Below, one piece after another: positions 23,882 through 37,298 of a stretch of 64,000 bases of DNA (the stretch's first letter is position 1; every line of letters starts with the position of its first letter). Made by a program: the position numbers and the translations under genes. Origin of the DNA: an uncultured Bacilli bacterium (lineage in GTDB: Bacteria > Bacillota_I > Bacilli_A > RFN20 > CAG-826); the NCBI GenBank assembly GCA_944368975.1, contig CALVXI010000002.1, forward strand, positions 111,110 to 175,109, in the 5' to 3' direction. The notes under the pieces were generated by a model, which saw only the letters and a list, made by a program, of their open reading frames with translations, was not told the DNA's origin and searched no databases.

Positions 23882-23908
23882 TTTTTTAATTTTGGTGCGA
23901 GAAATGAG
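23882..23908 (+). repeat. att core, distal copy (orphan tRNA-Leu 3' fragment)
   Basis: TTTTTTAATTTTGGTGCGAGAAATGAG, identical to 37272-37298. Confidence 0.9.
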
Positions 23909-23983
23909 CGGTAATAATCAATTTTTCTTATAGAAAAATCAAATAAAATCGGTGTATTTTGTTAAAATTTTCATTAGAAAATT

Positions 23984-24283
23984 TTACTTTTTTATCAATT
24001 TTTTATCAATTTTAGCTTCAACAATTTCTTTTAAAATATTCTCTGCTTCGCAAAGATTTTTAAATTCATCATTTGATATTTGAATATAATCTAAATTTCT
24101 TCCAAGAATTGAATCAACGGAAACTTTTAAGTAATCAGCAATTTTGCAAATTGTTTCGAAATCTGGTTCAGATTTACATCGAACATAATTACTCATTACA
24201 TAATCAGGAATATTTAAAGCTTTACATAGTTCAATTTGCTTTATACCTTTTGCTTTTAAAATTTCTTTTAAATAAATTCGCAT
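23984..24283 (-). CDS. XRE/Cro-CI family HTH regulator (putative element repressor)
   Basis: GIKQIELCKALNIPDYVMSNYVRCKSEPDFETICKIADYLKVSVDSILG is a classic HTH_3. Divergent from the long + strand operon. Confidence 0.85.
   Translation of the reverse strand: MRIYLKEILKAKGIKQIELCKALNIPDYVMSNYVRCKSEPDFETICKIADYLKVSVDSILGRNLDYIQISNDEFKNLCEAENILKEIVEAKIDKKLIKK
23992..24014 (+). repeat. Two direct TATCAATTTT(T) repeats (candidate integrase arm-type sites, left arm)
   Basis: Same motif as three copies at 37213-37247. Lies inside the 3' end of the XRE gene. Confidence 0.45.
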
Positions 24284-24302
24284 AAAATTATTTTAAAAAA
24301 AG

Positions 24303-24381
24303 TTGTAAATTATATCGATTTTTATTGATATAACTTGTAAATTATGCTATTTTAAAGAAAATACTTGTAGTAAATACAAGT
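24303..24381. promoter_or_regulatory. Divergent control region with candidate operators
   Basis: TTGTAAATTAT at 24303-24313 and 24335-24345. Inverted repeat ACTTGTA-N5-TACAAGT at 24363-24381. A TATAAT on the minus strand at 24309-24314 overlaps the first copy. Confidence 0.5.
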
Positions 24382-24403
24382 TTAGGAGTTTGGAGGTAAA
24401 AAA

Positions 24404-24592
24404 ATGAGTAAAGCATGGAAGGGTGCAATCATCATGTTACTTGTGATTTTGGTTATAGGAGTTATTTTGAGCTTAGGAGCTGTTTCAGATTGGTTTAGAG
24501 CTCCAGTTGAAGAATGGGGAGCTCACTGGGAAGAAATCATCGATGTAATTAAAGGCTCACCAATTACTACTACAGAACCACCTGTAGCTTGA
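24404..24592 (+). CDS. Small single-pass membrane protein
   Basis: RBS GGAGG, TM helix AIIMLLVILVIGVILSLGAV, TGA stop. Confidence 0.6.
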   Translation: MSKAWKGAIIMLLVILVIGVILSLGAVSDWFRAPVEEWGAHWEEIIDVIKGSPITTTEPPVA

Positions 24593-24613
24593 TTTTAAAA
24601 GGAGTTTTAAAAA

Positions 24614-25516
24614 ATGAATAAAAAAACAAAAATTTTAGTTGGATCAATAACAGGATGTGCTTTAGTTCTAGGAGCAGTTGCTACTGGATTAGGTCTTGGA
24701 TTACAAAAACAAGAAATTAAAGATACATCAGGTATTGAAACTACAATTGTTGAAGCTAAAGGAATGAAGCTTCAATTAGCAAGTACTGAGCTATTAGAAA
24801 CTGGCGCAACACAATTAACTTTTGATTATACAATTTTGCCAGAGAACGCTACTAATAAAGCAGTAACAACTTCATTAGCTTGGTCAGAAGATGGCGATAG
24901 TTCGACAGATGATGATACTTTTAAAACGAGTAAGACTGTTACTGACTATGTTACAGCTAGCGAAGATGAAGTTGAGCAACAAATTACTGTTACTTGTAAT
25001 GAAGCTTTCGGATCACAAATTAAGTTGACGATCACTTCAGATGATAATCCGGAAGCTACAGCTGAAGTTAATGTTGACTATCGAATTAAGCGTACATATT
25101 CACTTGACTTTAGCGGTCACACTATTGCTAGTAATGGCCAATGGAGTAGTTTAGCTTCAGGAACTTATCAAGAAAGTGTCGGCACACTTCCTTTTGATGG
25201 AGAGACTTATAGCGTTAAATTAGAGAGTGCAGTAGTCAATTCATCAGTTAGTACAGCTTTAACAAGTTATACAGCGTTATTAGATGCTTTAAAAACAGGT
25301 AATGGAGCAAGTGTATTAACTGAAGTTAATAAACTTAGTGGAGCTGATTATAACACAGCAGTTACTACTTTAAATGCTCATAAAACTGATGCAGTTACAT
25401 TTACTTTAAGTTATGCAACTATCGAAACTAAAGAATTAGTTGCTGGCTATGATTTAGGAAGTACAACTACTAAAGTTGAGGATATTACAGTCGATAATCC
25501 TAATATCATATTCTAA
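24614..25516 (+). CDS. N-terminally anchored surface protein with Big_2-like Ig domain (paralog A)
   Basis: RBS AAGGAG, N-terminal hydrophobic anchor. ILPENATNKAVTTSLAWSED resembles the Big_2 signature. Confidence 0.75.
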   Translation: MNKKTKILVGSITGCALVLGAVATGLGLGLQKQEIKDTSGIETTIVEAKGMKLQLASTELLETGATQLTFDYTILPENATNKAVTTSLAWSEDGDSSTDDDTFKTSKTVTDYVTASEDEVEQQITVTCNEAFGSQIKLTITSDDNPEATAEVNVDYRIKRTYSLDFSGHTIASNGQWSSLASGTYQESVGTLPFDGETYSVKLESAVVNSSVSTALTSYTALLDALKTGNGASVLTEVNKLSGADYNTAVTTLNAHKTDAVTFTLSYATIETKELVAGYDLGSTTTKVEDITVDNPNIIF

Positions 25517-25530
25517 TTAGGAGGTAGAGA

Positions 25531-25614
25531 ATGGTTTATAGAAGAACTAGAAGAAGAAATATTACGCGCAAAACAACTAGAAAACCAAAAGTAATTATTA
25601 TCAAAAAATATTAG
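25531..25614 (+). CDS. 27-aa extremely basic micropeptide (MVYRRTRRRNITRKTTRKPKVIIIKKY)
   Basis: Strong RBS AGGAGG 7 nt upstream of the ATG. 12 of 27 residues are R/K. Too short for the ORF track. Confidence 0.45.
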   Translation: MVYRRTRRRNITRKTTRKPKVIIIKKY

Positions 25615-25700
25615 TAGTTGTCAGTGGGTTTGCTAGTTTTCCCGGCAAAACTAGCACACTGATGTAATTCTTAAGTAATACATTAAAGTGAGGTATTTAC

Positions 25701-35460: not shown

Positions 35461-35601
35461 ATGGCAAACAAAAAGTTCATCCTTTACAAGGATGGTAAAA
35501 AGGTAAGTGAAGAAACTTCAAAAGGTTTATTCGATGTTCCAATAATTAACCTAGTTAGGTTAGGTATTAAAGTTAAATTTGAGGAAGTTAGGAGTAATTG
35601 A
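35461..35601 (+). CDS. 46-aa hypothetical protein (possible excisionase-size ORF)
   Basis: RBS AAAGGAG 7 nt upstream. The TGA stop lies 1 nt before the next ATG. Confidence 0.4.
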   Translation: MANKKFILYKDGKKVSEETSKGLFDVPIINLVRLGIKVKFEEVRSN

Positions 35602-35602
35602 T

Positions 35603-35929
35603 ATGAGTAAGGAAGAATTTGACAGTAAATTTAATGAAATACAAAAAATCGCTGAGATTAAATTTGATCCTGATGATTTAGATAAACTATTGGAGATAGT
35701 TGATGTGGTTAATATGTTTTATATCAATTTAATTAAGTTATTGGGAAGAGGAGAGAACGTTCACCGTTATTCTCTAGAACAATTAGAAGCTATATCTGAA
35801 TCATTAGTTAAAAGATTAACTAAATTTGATATTTTAGCTGATAAATATATTGATTTGTGTAAAGAAGCAAATGAACGTTATTCGGTTGCATTAGATCAAT
35901 TTTTAAAGGGAGCAGATAACGATGACTAA
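35603..35929 (+). CDS. 108-aa hypothetical helical protein
   Basis: ATG at 35603 preceded by AGGAG. The track's TTG start at 35579 is less likely. Confidence 0.6.
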   Translation: MSKEEFDSKFNEIQKIAEIKFDPDDLDKLLEIVDVVNMFYINLIKLLGRGENVHRYSLEQLEAISESLVKRLTKFDILADKYIDLCKEANERYSVALDQFLKGADNDD

Positions 35930-36134
35930 AAAAGAAATAAGAAAATATATTCGTGATAATTATAATTTAGTTGTTAGCTATGATTTATTTAATAAAAATA
36001 TAATAACATCTATGCGTAATGTTCGCGACTTTGCTATTAATAGATTAAGTTCTGGAAGGCACTCAATTATCTTTTTATATAAAAGCGGAGCTTTTGACAC
36101 ACAACAAATTATTATTGAAGATTATGTAATATAA
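35922..36134 (+). CDS. 70-aa hypothetical protein
   Basis: Overlaps the upstream gene by 8 nt. RBS-like GGGAG. Confidence 0.5.
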   Translation: MTKKEIRKYIRDNYNLVVSYDLFNKNIITSMRNVRDFAINRLSSGRHSIIFLYKSGAFDTQQIIIEDYVI

Positions 36135-36191
36135 ATAATTAAAAAAATATTCTTGTTTTGCAGACTTTTTAATAAAAAATGAGGTAATTTT

Positions 36192-36731
36192 ATGGAAAAA
36201 AAGATATTTAATGGTTGGTTTAAATTTTCTAAAGTTTATTTAGATCATGCTAAATATTTAATTAAAGGAACTTATTCAGATAGATATGTTGGCTATTACT
36301 ATTTAACCCTTTATTCGATTTTAGCTAGTGATTGTGATGTTATAATGTCTGGTGGTAAGCTTCCAGTTAATGAAGATGGTAATTTAGATATGAGCAAAAT
36401 ATCGATTATTTTAGATATTGATAAAATAGAAGCAGTTTCGTTTATTAATCTACTAAAAGAATGTGGACTATATAACGATGGGTATTTAACTAATATTGAT
36501 TTATTTTATGGCAACTTGCACAGAAAAGCTTTTGATAATAAACGATACTATGATCCTAAAAGAGGAATTTTTCATCAATCAGGGAAAGTTGTGTGGTGTG
36601 ATTCACATCACAACAGTTTTTATAAGCTGCTAAAAGACCTTTCTTCTGAAGAACTGATAGATGCTAAAGCCTATGCTTTAGAGGCAATTGAAGCAGGAAA
36701 AAAATATAAGGAAAAAGAATTAAAAGAATAA
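36192..36731 (+). CDS. Phage replisome-organizer-like (DnaD-like N-terminal) protein
   Basis: WFKFSKVYLDH...YYYLTLYSILASDCDVIMSGGKLPVNEDG...ISIILDIDKIEAVSFINLLKECGL resembles the replisome organizer N-terminal region. Judged by eye only. Confidence 0.45.
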   Translation: MEKKIFNGWFKFSKVYLDHAKYLIKGTYSDRYVGYYYLTLYSILASDCDVIMSGGKLPVNEDGNLDMSKISIILDIDKIEAVSFINLLKECGLYNDGYLTNIDLFYGNLHRKAFDNKRYYDPKRGIFHQSGKVVWCDSHHNSFYKLLKDLSSEELIDAKAYALEAIEAGKKYKEKELKE

Positions 36732-37181
36732 GTTATACTATTAAATAGGCTATTTAGACTTACGCAGGTTTCTGATCTATATTTGTTGGCTACTTGTTAA
36801 ATAGAAGCGTTTTACTGCTAAAGAAGTCGTTATATAGCTAAAATTTTCTTAAAAAGGCTCAAAAAAATGAGTCCTTTTTGGCATTTACTTATAAAGAAAC
36901 ATTAAAACCATTGAACATTTAAGAGATTATAGAGATATAAGAGAAAAGAATTAAGAAATTAGAAATAAAAAAACGAAACTAACAAGTAGCCACTTTAAGT
37001 TTTAAAGTAAGTAAAATTATTTTAGTTAGTTTGTTTATATAGCACCCCCTATAGATTACCTAGAAGGGTATATCCTGGGATAGTATGTGGAAAACTCATC
37101 ATTAATTTTAGTTTTTAATTTATTTATTATTTTTTTAAAATAATAAAGTAAAGAAAATTAAAAACGAAATATTAATTTTAT

Positions 37182-37209
37182 AAAAAAAAGATTCGCGCGA
37201 AGAGCGAAT
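37182..37209 (-). terminator. Element-borne intrinsic terminator downstream of tRNA-Leu
   Basis: On the minus strand: stem ATTCGC/GCGAAT with a 7-nt loop, followed by a T8 run. Confidence 0.7.
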
Positions 37210-37212
37210 TCC

Positions 37213-37247
37213 TTTATCAATTTTTATCAATTTTTTATCAATTTTTT
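37213..37247 (+). repeat. Three direct TATCAATTTT(T) repeats at 10-11 nt phasing (candidate arm-type sites, right arm)
   Basis: TATCAA at 37215, 37225 and 37236, lying 26-58 nt from the att core. Confidence 0.5.
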
Positions 37248-37271
37248 GAAAAAGTTCGATGCAATCGATAT

Positions 37272-37298
37272 TTTTTTAATTTTGGTGCGAGAAATGAG
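37272..37298 (+). repeat. att core, tRNA-proximal copy
   Basis: Identical 27-mer. Positions 37283-37298 are the 3' 16 nt of tRNA-Leu. Confidence 0.9.

Follow-up and report, generated by a model that had tools for sequence, protein, structure and literature searches.

The 64,000-nucleotide stretch of an uncultured Bacilli genome analyzed here (contig CALVXI010000002.1; hereafter the window) contains, between two copies of a 27-bp sequence at positions 23882 to 37298, what is almost certainly an integrated, excision-competent mobile element. It entered at the 3' end of a tRNA-Leu(GAG) gene by site-specific recombination between attP and attB across the common 27-bp core, the host population is polymorphic for it, and variants nearly identical to it, of about 12.8-13.4 kb, are found as circles or head-to-tail junctions. 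The integration event itself is textbook, and it is unusually well documented because all four attachment (att) sites can be seen in public assemblies; the novelty lies in what is integrated. The element belongs to a large family, 11-14 kb in size and integrative or episomal, of gut Bacilli and Clostridia, whose core is a conserved module of secreted and membrane proteins joined to interchangeable replication and integration genes, and which has very probably not been described before. As a whole, it is best explained (with a probability of roughly 0.6) as a mobile element of this undescribed family that is most likely temperate, non-lytic, capsid-less and virus-like.

The ends of the element are set by the 27-mer TTTTTTAATTTTGGTGCGAGAAATGAG, which is present in the window as two exact copies (23882-23908 and 37272-37298), as an earlier note on this DNA had observed. 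No third copy was found on either strand with up to 3 mismatches allowed, and none of 100 dinucleotide-preserving shuffles contained a match. The sites concerned are as follows.

23882 to 23908, plus strand: attL core, 27 bp; exact repeat, the DNA to its left being the left flank of attB and the DNA to its right the right arm of attP
37272 to 37298, plus strand: attR core, 27 bp, the intact tRNA having its 3' end at 37283-37298 (exact repeat, ARAGORN, Rfam, alignments)
37283 to 37367, minus strand: tRNA-Leu(GAG), the integration target, intact despite the insertion (ARAGORN; Rfam, 48.1 bits)

The right copy of the repeat is made up of the 16 terminal nucleotides of the tRNA (CTCATTTCTCGCACCA on the tRNA strand), comprising the 3' side of the T-stem, the acceptor stem, the discriminator and CCA, and of 11 nucleotides of downstream DNA. 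ARAGORN called the gene as tRNA-Leu(gag), and in a local run against the Rfam tRNA model it scored 48.1 bits over its full length, where the gathering score is 29; the intact minus-strand tRNA of the earlier note is thereby confirmed. (A whole-window Rfam run at the gathering threshold reported 4 of the 5 tRNAs and missed this one, an effect of filtering and not a defect of the tRNA.) The element supplies its own copy of the 16 terminal nucleotides, and the tRNA therefore stays intact. The left copy is an orphan to which, by ARAGORN, no tRNA body adjoins; it had rightly been called a tRNA 3' fragment, and it begins 38 nucleotides, not 37 as given before, beyond the terminator stem of tex (23817-23843). 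Both flanks are housekeeping genes, as claimed: by Pfam, tex (Tex_N through S1 domains) lies on the left and pduL (PTAC) on the right. The unit between the two cores measures 13,390 bp.

Same-species contigs from several projects were retrieved by exact-sequence look-up of the Tex and PduL proteins. In at least six of them, L008, L009 (GCA_949298345.1), L011, L012, L013 and L014, tex is followed directly by pduL and the element is absent; it is present in L003, L004, L006, L007, L010, L015 and L016. The attB junction was aligned in four of the empty sites (L008, L009, L012 and L013), whose host flanks are 98.3-98.7% identical to those of the window, and reads from the terminator through ...ATAACTGA, a single 27-mer and AATCGAAC... 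(tRNA-Leu) to pduL; that is, it equals the left flank of attL, one core and the right flank of attR. The 27-mer is not a dispersed repeat, because it is single-copy at every empty-site locus and at every other locus of the same species that was fetched. A further contig, L005 (ERZ24773257 NODE_76, 135 kb), stops 529 nucleotides past tex, at the gene for an XRE-type repressor where variants begin to diverge, which suggests that in its sample the site is found with more than one variant or in more than one state of occupancy.

The excised form is represented by close variants from other samples than that of the window, reached through a 93%-identical variant of the element's 623-aa protein. Two element-only scaffolds, L062 (13,413 nucleotides) and L064 (12,922 nucleotides), are circular permutations in which the gene order runs from the integrase through the small open reading frames (ORFs) and the 179-aa gene to attP, and on to the minus-strand XRE gene and the 62-aa and 300-aa genes. 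In each the 27-mer occurs exactly once. Joining 36732-37298 of the window to 23909-24300 gives a predicted attP that aligns end to end with both at 87% identity, and near the core the observed attP matches, base for base, the left arm of attR joined through the core to the right arm of attL. L064 is a 12,823-bp circle, given its 99-nucleotide terminal overlap. Three further members of the 90%-identity cluster of the element's ATPase likewise have element-sized largest contigs (12,853, 13,031 and 13,031 nucleotides). A screen for terminal overlaps among 80 metagenome loci yielded no new circular contigs besides L064, which is not evidence against circularity because such overlaps are often trimmed from deposited contigs; an exact attP 41-mer had no match in IMG/VR.

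One caveat attaches to these junctions. An attP junction could also arise from head-to-tail tandem integrated copies, and a distant relative, L032 (CAUTUX010000004.1, 69564-82909), contains within an 88-kb contig a 2,522-nucleotide repeat, 100% identical, with a period of 10,824 nucleotides. The repeat in L032 reflects either two integrations in tandem or a concatemer that was assembled into the chromosome. For L062 and L064, free circles are favored over a tandem array because host DNA is wholly absent from both. That the repeat is a matter of chance or of faulty assembly, with no insertion at all, has nothing in its favor and is excluded as an explanation, since the same junctions recur in independent assemblies from several projects and attB and attP match their predicted sequences base for base across the core. 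The two junctions that the earlier note had proposed to look for, tex terminator to tRNA-Leu through a single 27-mer and right end to left end through one 27-mer, are thus present in public assemblies, the latter in L062 and L064; the 27-mer is not dispersed, relatives include empty sites, and the attL/attR signature of site-specific tRNA integration is supported, with attB and attP now seen as well.

The genes and sites that would carry out and control integration are listed below. Searches with Pfam and PHROG covered the element's proteins of at least 99 aa, with Pfam also applied to the small ORFs.

34022 to 35113, plus strand: tyrosine integrase, 363 aa, overlapping the stop codon of the ATPase gene (Pfam Phage_integrase, PF00589, 1.9e-19; PHROG_1 integrase, 4.8e-43)
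37213 to 37247, plus strand: TTATCAA(T)TTTT in three copies within the P arm, at offsets -58, -48 and -37 from the start of the core
23989 to 24013, plus strand: a pair of TTATCAATTTT repeats at offsets +110 and +121, in the part of the P' arm where the XRE gene has its 3' end, which they overlap
23984 to 24283, minus strand: XRE/Cro-CI-type repressor, 99 aa, divergent from the main operon (Pfam HTH_26, 3.9e-9, and HTH_3; PHROG transcriptional regulators)
35192 to 35356, plus strand: ORF of 54 codons with an ATA start behind a GGAGG site, with the look, by eye, of a ribbon-helix-helix protein

The integrase and the XRE repressor, both correctly recognized in the earlier note, are the only element proteins with a family match in Pfam, PHROGs or NCBIfam. 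The integrase, in which the catalytic residues R200, H304-x-x-R307, H330 and Y340 can be read from the sequence, is 97-98% conserved in variants and lies 2.2 kb from attR, not adjacent to it. The offsets of all five TTATCAA repeats are the same in the attP predicted from the window as in those observed in L062 and L064, and variant sequences diverge right after the second P'-arm repeat; the repeats are candidate arm-type integrase-binding sites. The XRE repressor is a candidate immunity gene. The ribbon-helix-helix gene reported earlier could be traced only to the 54-codon ORF, which has no ATG, GTG or TTG start and no Pfam match; it might encode an excision or regulatory factor.

Between 24.4 and 34.0 kb the plus strand is one tightly packed operon, followed beyond the integrase by small genes and a non-coding right end.

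24404 to 24592, plus strand: single-pass membrane protein, 62 aa, with an acidic C-terminus (hydrophobic segment 9-27; 97-100% conserved in variants; no family match)
24614 to 25516, plus strand: acidic secreted or anchored protein, 300 aa, with a SecDom N-terminal domain (net charge -20; hydrophobic segment at the N-terminus; unmatched in Pfam, PHROGs and NCBIfam)
25701 to 25943, plus strand: very basic protein, 80 aa, net charge +15 (no family match)
25950 to 26324, plus strand: basic protein, 124 aa, net charge +16, weak kin of the small basic family C8 of related elements
26441 to 27826, plus strand: acidic secreted protein, 461 aa, a hypervariable SecDom paralogue, net charge -36 (cluster C1)
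27827 to 28873, plus strand: acidic secreted protein, 348 aa, a variable, weak SecDom relative (phmmer match to the SecDom protein of L022, 2.6e-5)
28876 to 29472, plus strand: P198, N-terminally anchored, 198 aa, member of the conserved module (hydrophobic segment 8-26; cluster C5)
29474 to 31345, plus strand: P623, type-I membrane protein, 623 aa (signal or anchor segment, beta-rich acidic ectodomain, C-terminal transmembrane helix)
31364 to 31732, plus strand: small N-terminally anchored membrane protein, 122 aa, between P623 and the ATPase (hydrophobic segment 9-27)
31734 to 34025, plus strand: polytopic membrane P-loop ATPase, 763 aa (about 6 transmembrane segments within 1-285, then the ATPase domain)
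35461 to 36134, plus strand: three small ORFs of 46, 116 and 70 aa, also called as genes in related contigs
36192 to 36731, plus strand: protein of 179 aa, 96% conserved in variants
36732 to 37271, no strand: non-coding right end, 540 nucleotides, the P arm of attP (terminator-like hairpins at 36856-36873 on the plus and 37209-37191 on the minus strand)

The membrane-protein operon of the earlier note is therefore present, although its being the conserved core of a large undescribed family had been missed. P623, with a net charge of -48, is the best-conserved protein of that family; P198 (cluster C5) was found in 12 loci, each time immediately 5' of P623; and a small ORF occupies the position of the 122-aa protein in many related loci, though not in all. 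The 300-aa, 461-aa and 348-aa proteins have an N-terminal domain in common (SecDom), weakly so in the last; the first two are clear paralogues and fall together in cluster C1, represented in 21 of 46 related loci. The 80-aa basic protein is, judging from its charge, a candidate DNA-binding or DNA-condensing protein, and the 124-aa protein matches the C8 hidden Markov model with E=7.7e-4 (against about 840 proteins). In the ATPase we recognize a Walker A motif (G298-T305), a Walker B-like segment ending in TE491, and RH528-529 followed by DxQR547. Of the three small ORFs, none of which has a family match, the middle one starts so as to give 108 aa in related contigs. For the 179-aa protein, the label of a replisome-organizer-like gene is unsupported, there being no match in Pfam, PHROGs or NCBIfam; a role in replication is possible from the position of its gene. 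The 540-nucleotide right end is a candidate origin or regulatory region. Within it (36980-37100) lie about 70 nucleotides that are unusually G+C-rich for this genome (...GCACCCCCTATAGATTACCTAGAAGGGTATATCCTGGGATAGTATGTGG...), with no Rfam match at the gathering threshold, and these could be an origin or a small RNA.

Comparison of strains shows that the element and its host do not keep the same pace, elements being 93-96% identical where host flanks are 98.3-98.7% identical. The variants are mosaic. The ATPase, the integrase, the small ORFs and the 179-aa protein are mostly 95-100% identical (one exception is the 116-aa ORF in L016, at 87.5%), whereas the XRE repressor is only 49-50% identical between variants, the 348-aa protein 28-83%, P198 61-97% and P623 66-93%; the 461-aa protein matches its counterparts in L062 and L064 over its first 162 aa only, at 43-45% identity. 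A swapped repressor together with swapped surface proteins on a constant backbone is the pattern shown by populations of heteroimmune temperate phages that have exchanged host-recognition genes, which is suggestive, though not proof. To judge from these sequences the element evolves independently of its host, and it must have arrived horizontally more than once, because the divergence among same-site variants of a single species far exceeds that among their hosts.

The size of the family to which the element belongs is apparent from its ATPase and from P623. An exhaustive HMMER search with the ATPase returned homologues representing 458 clusters at 50% identity, nearly all of 700-790 aa and aligned end to end; a word-indexed search with the same protein returned 2 close matches only, AT-rich low-complexity words having saturated its candidates. 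Residues K304, E491, N498 and Q546 are invariant, and the conserved motifs are GxPGxGKT (with K304), hhhhTE491xDKERGNQ and N..ND.FN..LK..RH..TID..PF.....DxQR. Homologues of P623 fall into at least 534 clusters at 90% identity, none with a Pfam family and the few that bear a name being called "hypothetical protein"; many sit on contigs of 11.5-13.7 kb. With a 12-sequence ATPase alignment as query and one genome per species, 45 genome loci were found, from animal and human guts. The metagenome-assembled genomes (MAGs) that carry them are labeled as Bacilli, Acholeplasmataceae, Erysipelotrichaceae, Christensenellaceae, Ruminococcus, "Ca. Coproplasma", "Ca. Scatosoma" and unclassified Clostridia, and three more loci come from MAGs labeled Methanolobus, Bacteroidales and "uncultured bacterium". 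About 14 of the genome loci are whole contigs of 11-14.5 kb. A scan of metagenomes added 401 loci, many labeled "human gut metagenome".

Across loci the gene order is constant, from one or more SecDom proteins through P198, P623 and a small transmembrane protein to the ATPase, after which follows a back end that varies as listed here.

PF23343 REP_ORF2-G2P rolling-circle replication protein (Rep), directly after the ATPase: 13 loci
Rep_trans with Rol_Rep_N: 4 loci
Rep_1: 4 loci
360-aa winged-helix protein: 9 loci
Tyrosine integrase: 14 loci
IS30-like DDE enzyme: 7 loci

A rolling-circle Rep is carried by 21 of 46 related loci; in the present element none was found by Pfam, PHROG or NCBIfam. 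Relatives that bear an integrase adjoin tRNA-Leu(tag), tRNA-Pro, tRNA-Arg or tRNA-Ala genes. Among 130 proteins from 17 element-sized loci, Pfam and PHROG recognized replication initiators, regulators and a few surface-repeat domains only, and neither these proteins nor the element itself include a capsid, portal, terminase, tail or lysis gene. Likewise, Pfam and NCBIfam found no relaxase, coupling protein (VirD4/TcpA), VirB4 or FtsK/SpoIIIE domain in the element or its relatives.

Some individual relatives deserve mention. L057 (JAGAPA010000037.1, 13,718 nucleotides) is a circular distant relative with a 141-nucleotide terminal overlap; it carries a tyrosine integrase together with a G2P-type rolling-circle Rep and an XRE repressor, and its 20-mer ATTTTATTATACAGATTTTT, present four times (some copies perhaps inside the overlap), is a possible origin iteron. 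L017 and L050, from the same MAG (SRS15957007__bin16, uncultured Bacilli), are closely similar copies of the module with an ATPase of 739 aa in both, one of which adjoins tRNA-Arg(ACG); they may be two elements, or integrated and free forms within a single bin.

The breadth of the family bears on the possibility that the element is a genomic island that merely excises and reintegrates, its operon being cargo (surface proteins and an export or envelope ATPase) that is not self-transmissible. The lack of recognizable transfer or virion genes would suit such an island, as would the Flg_new and BspA-type leucine-rich-repeat surface domains found on the secreted proteins of some relatives. We nonetheless regard it as very unlikely, since at least five unrelated back ends, for replication or integration, accompany the module, which occurs at different att sites and in two classes of bacteria; because it is the module, and not the back end, that is conserved across classes and att sites, the module is the core of the element and not its cargo. 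Element-only contigs, two of them with terminal overlaps, also recur in independent samples, and the divergence of same-site variants described above implies repeated horizontal arrival.

What the module does must be judged largely from its ATPase, which has no family in Pfam, PHROG or NCBIfam. Its AlphaFold2 model is of good quality (predicted local distance difference test, pLDDT, 86.9; predicted template-modeling score, pTM, 0.79), and in a Foldseek search of the viral structure database BFVD the first rank went to an unnamed viral protein (E 1.8e-3, template-modeling score on the target, TMt, 0.53) and the second, a weak match, to ORF3 of Acholeplasma phage L2 (E 2.8e-2, probability 0.89, TMt 0.29). 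Inovirus proteins named "zonular occludens toxin" (Zot) stood at ranks 4 and 13 (probability 1.00 and 0.97, TMt 0.46 and 0.43, E 0.04-0.14). By sequence profile the PDB gave 2r2a ("Uncharacterized protein"; E 0.1, P-loop only), which we take to be the N-terminal domain of a Neisseria Zot. By eye, the ATPase, L2 ORF3, M13 pI and Orf8 of phage B5 share hhhh(D/T)E and, 25-40 residues on, R(H/K)xG/TxD...Q. For P623 (model pLDDT 79.4), a sequence-profile search of the PDB gave nothing meaningful, and hhalign of its profile with L2 ORF1 gave a transmembrane match only.

These resemblances raise the question whether the element is a true filamentous phage (Tubulavirales) in prophage form, its ATPase a divergent pI/Zot, with P623 in the role of pIII and the 122-aa protein in that of pVI, and with extrusion as a filament of single-stranded DNA. 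The order of pIII-like, pVI-like and pI-like genes and Rep is that of B5 and M13, Zot proteins are among the best Foldseek matches, and in 13 related loci a Rep of the inovirus and plectrovirus type (PF23343) directly follows the ATPase. Yet the present element has no rolling-circle Rep, and a heuristic scan of the element and ten relatives for a small coat protein with hydrophobic core and basic tail, of the inovirus major type, turned up only spurious out-of-frame ORFs. The transmembrane domain of the ATPase is N-terminal, unlike that of pI, and none of 63 ATPase family members has a Zot match in Pfam or PHROG. With 12.8-13.4 kb and three large secreted paralogues, these elements also exceed the inovirus sizes cited (5.5-10.6 kb). 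We consider this explanation quite improbable; the element is not a canonical inovirus, having no Zot domain by sequence, no coat candidate, no Rep and an ATPase with its domains reversed.

The main rival is an integrative plasmid or another element that passes DNA from cell to cell. Here the ATPase would translocate DNA, and the secreted proteins would serve in adhesion, mating-pair formation or spread, in the manner of the actinomycete integrative and conjugative elements (AICEs) or of pR1SE, a vesicle-disseminated plasmid of Halorubrum. AICEs such as pSAM2 and SLP1 are 9-24 kb long, use tRNA att sites and a tyrosine integrase, and replicate the excised circle by a rolling-circle mechanism; they comprise int, a rolling-circle rep, a single membrane-anchored FtsK-like ATPase (TraB), small Spd membrane proteins and a Kor repressor. 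Size, tRNA att site, integrase, repressor and circle, together with the Rep_1 and Rep_trans proteins of relatives, fit such a layout. The ATPase has its membrane domain N-terminal and its P-loop domain after it, as in TraB and in reverse of pI; HerA and FtsK proteins are among the weak Foldseek matches; a virion hallmark is absent, and the family is not in IMG/VR. Set against this, neither the element nor its relatives have an FtsK_SpoIIIE, TraG/VirD4, VirB4 or relaxase domain, the module has no match among the 72,556 plasmids of PLSDB, Zot and L2 ORF3 are better structural matches than FtsK, and the swapping of repressors alongside hypervariable surface proteins is more typical of temperate viruses. 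Double-stranded DNA conjugation of the AICE type, moreover, is known only from mycelial actinomycetes. We therefore hold a transfer element of this kind to be unlikely, if distinctly less so than a filamentous prophage.

The temperate, virus-like reading is favored for five reasons. The ATPase has its closest structural neighbors in the ATPases of filamentous-phage morphogenesis and in the one P-loop protein that L2 has; the gene order of large anchored protein, small transmembrane protein, ATPase and Rep or integrase matches M13, B5 and L2; small basic proteins within a structural operon fit a nucleoprotein core; variants swap the repressor and the exposed proteins; and one module is paired with rolling-circle and other replicons, as in Pleolipoviridae. 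We infer that the module is the element's transmission apparatus. The operon would be kept silent by the XRE repressor. Upon induction, the integrase, perhaps with the small ORF downstream of it, would excise the circle, which the host's own machinery would then replicate. The membrane ATPase would drive this DNA, in a coat of the small basic proteins, through the membrane or into it, and the resulting particle would bear P623 and the variable secreted proteins, by which the next host would be recognized. Whether transmission takes the form of a virus-like particle is, in our judgment, an even bet.

A number of observations weigh against this reading. The structural matches of the ATPase are weak (E from 2e-3 upward, TM-scores of 0.3-0.5), and against the PDB Foldseek gave generic AAA+/HerA matches only (E of at least 0.04). 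In hhalign comparisons with L2 ORF3, M13 pI and B5 Orf8 the ATPase profile aligned at the P-loop only, and the missing Zot families and coat protein count here as they do for the filamentous phages. P623 has no structural relative in BFVD by Foldseek, and tblastn of all element proteins against L2 gave one match only, a weak one (E 0.003) at the level of a helix-turn-helix, between the XRE repressor and an unannotated stretch. IMG/VR holds no relative of the module. Many hosts (Christensenellales and other Clostridia) are walled, which disfavors simple budding of the L2 type family-wide, and the particle, like the exit of DNA from the cell, is a prediction from genes.

Whole-element megablast gave no match among GenBank phages, and in INPHARED the module was found only in MT835493 ("UNVERIFIED: Bacteriophage sp.", 57 kb). 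We rejected this record as evidence of a phage, and its rejection is a further point to be set against the virus-like reading: it is a fragment of host chromosome with a Dnd island, as is apparent from its UmuD/UmuC-type genes (Peptidase_S24, impB/mucB/samB), a Dnd phosphorothioation cluster and a helicase. Within it, L001 (MT835493.1, 19837-45375) is an integrated relative with an integrase, the S24 and impB/mucB/samB genes, the order SecDom-P198-P623-ATPase and a G2P-type Rep; beside that relative lie Dnd-type genes (PAPS reductase/DndC-like, DUF4007 and cysteine desulfurase) and a PLD-SNF2 helicase. A source of spacers against the element was sought in 2.2 Mb of fetched loci, which contained no CRISPR arrays. 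No prior description, whether as plasmavirus-like, pleolipovirus-like or gut Firmicutes inoviruses, was found in the literature searched; the nearest candidate, the gut inoviruses of PMC8530359, was set aside as a different group, with recognizable Zot and coat proteins and genomes of 5.6-9.4 kb.

The module thus lies outside Pfam, PHROGs, NCBIfam, IMG/VR, PLSDB and, but for one mislabeled record, INPHARED, and yet comprises hundreds of protein clusters. Should the elements be viruses, a whole lineage of non-lytic temperate viruses, infecting Clostridia and wall-reduced Bacilli, escapes the virus-detection pipelines now in use, and Plasmaviridae, so far a family of one member, would acquire distant relatives and perhaps an evolutionary connection to filamentous phages. 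Should they be plasmids, the module of ATPase and membrane proteins would form a DNA-transfer apparatus of a kind undescribed in Bacillota. Either way, profiles of the ATPase and of P623 can serve as markers for finding such elements. A bolder proposition is that they constitute a large unrecognized family of capsid-less temperate viruses of gut Bacillota, in which, as in the archaeal Pleolipoviridae, one module packages unrelated replicons of rolling-circle or other type and the ATPase links Plasmaviridae with filamentous phages; this we advance tentatively, at somewhat under even odds. Were it true, the hosts would include common human-gut Clostridia and reduced-genome Bacilli, and the present element would be the first worked example.

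The host of the element has a Bacillota genome, as its PolC indicates, with a G+C content of about 27%. The closest named relative of its LeuRS, at 80% identity, is from "Candidatus Onthovivens sp.", a genus that we take to belong to the order RFN20. Two families of RFN20 are predicted to have no peptidoglycan (PMC10868615). Among the Pfam-annotated genes of the window and its flanks no peptidoglycan genes were found, which is not conclusive for the wall of this host. Budding in the manner of L2 is plausible here if the host is wall-less, while many relatives of the element reside in walled Clostridia. Elsewhere in the window, a 438-aa protein with Schlafen/AlbA_2, HATPase_c_4 and winged helix-turn-helix domains is encoded at 6156-7472, about 430 nucleotides downstream of tRNA-Arg(CCT) (5643-5720); it could be a small defense-type insertion, with no integrase nearby (the 363-aa ORF at 8394-9485 is a phosphodiesterase). 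Consecutive ORFs of 292, 616 and 834 aa at 9729-15005, upstream of tdk/nrdD, match no Pfam family and are kept in all strains, including those with the empty site.

Several known systems invite comparison. With lambdoid and P4-type tRNA prophages and islands the element shares a core made of a tRNA 3' end, a restored tRNA, arm-type repeats, a tyrosine integrase, and a CI-like repressor divergent from the operon that in those phages is lytic; everything else differs, and no structural or lysis gene of Caudoviricetes is found in it. From AICEs it is set apart by the lack of an FtsK/SpoIIIE domain, by non-mycelial Bacillota hosts and by its large hypervariable secreted proteins. The Pleolipoviridae, pleomorphic viruses of archaea, resemble it by analogy only, in integrating as proviruses and in having no capsid; their hosts are archaeal, homology was not detected (P623 having no BFVD match), and membership is not claimed. 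In that family a conserved module of membrane proteins and an NTPase is likewise combined with unrelated replication modules, rolling-circle Rep or others (PMC5867852; PMC10599561). The vesicle-like virions of Pleolipoviridae accept single- or double-stranded DNA. Filamentous phages (Inoviridae, Paulinoviridae such as Propionibacterium phage B5, and Plectroviridae) share with the element a non-lytic design, a module ordered as genes III-VI-I of M13 and, with the Rep that follows it, as Orf6-7-8-9 of B5, a Zot-like fold among the best, though weak, matches of the ATPase, and the G2P-type Rep of 13 relatives. Some inoviruses also integrate at tRNA genes through tyrosine recombinases, and a clade from gut Firmicutes has genomes of 5.6-9.4 kb (PMC8530359). 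The several large secreted paralogues of the element and the N-terminal position of the transmembrane domain in its ATPase are unlike theirs.

The closest parallel is with Plasmaviridae, represented by Acholeplasma virus L2 (NC_001447). Structural-module proteins show no similarity by BLAST or hhalign beyond P-loop and transmembrane segments; the ATPase has 763 aa and about 6 transmembrane segments, as against 312 aa in L2 ORF3; attP lies after a block of small genes, and not right after int as in L2; and the element has a divergent XRE repressor, with many family members residing in walled Clostridia and carrying rolling-circle Reps. Since sequence comparison detects no homologue among the L2 proteins, the data do not support placing the element in Plasmaviridae. 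In organization, L2 and the element are both circles of about 12-13 kb with nearly all genes on one strand, a tyrosine integrase and no capsid, tail or lysis genes; both encode acidic signal-peptide proteins with C-terminal anchors (net charge -53 for L2 ORF13 and -48 for P623); and both follow the order of large anchored protein, small transmembrane protein, P-loop protein and integrase (L2 ORF1-2-3-(4)-Int). Proviruses related to L2 integrate at tRNA genes and have genomes of about 12 kb (PMC12662186). Of the named virus families, then, it is a plasmavirus that the element would by analogy most resemble in its manner of working, at about 13 kb, integrating at a tRNA gene and doing without a Rep.

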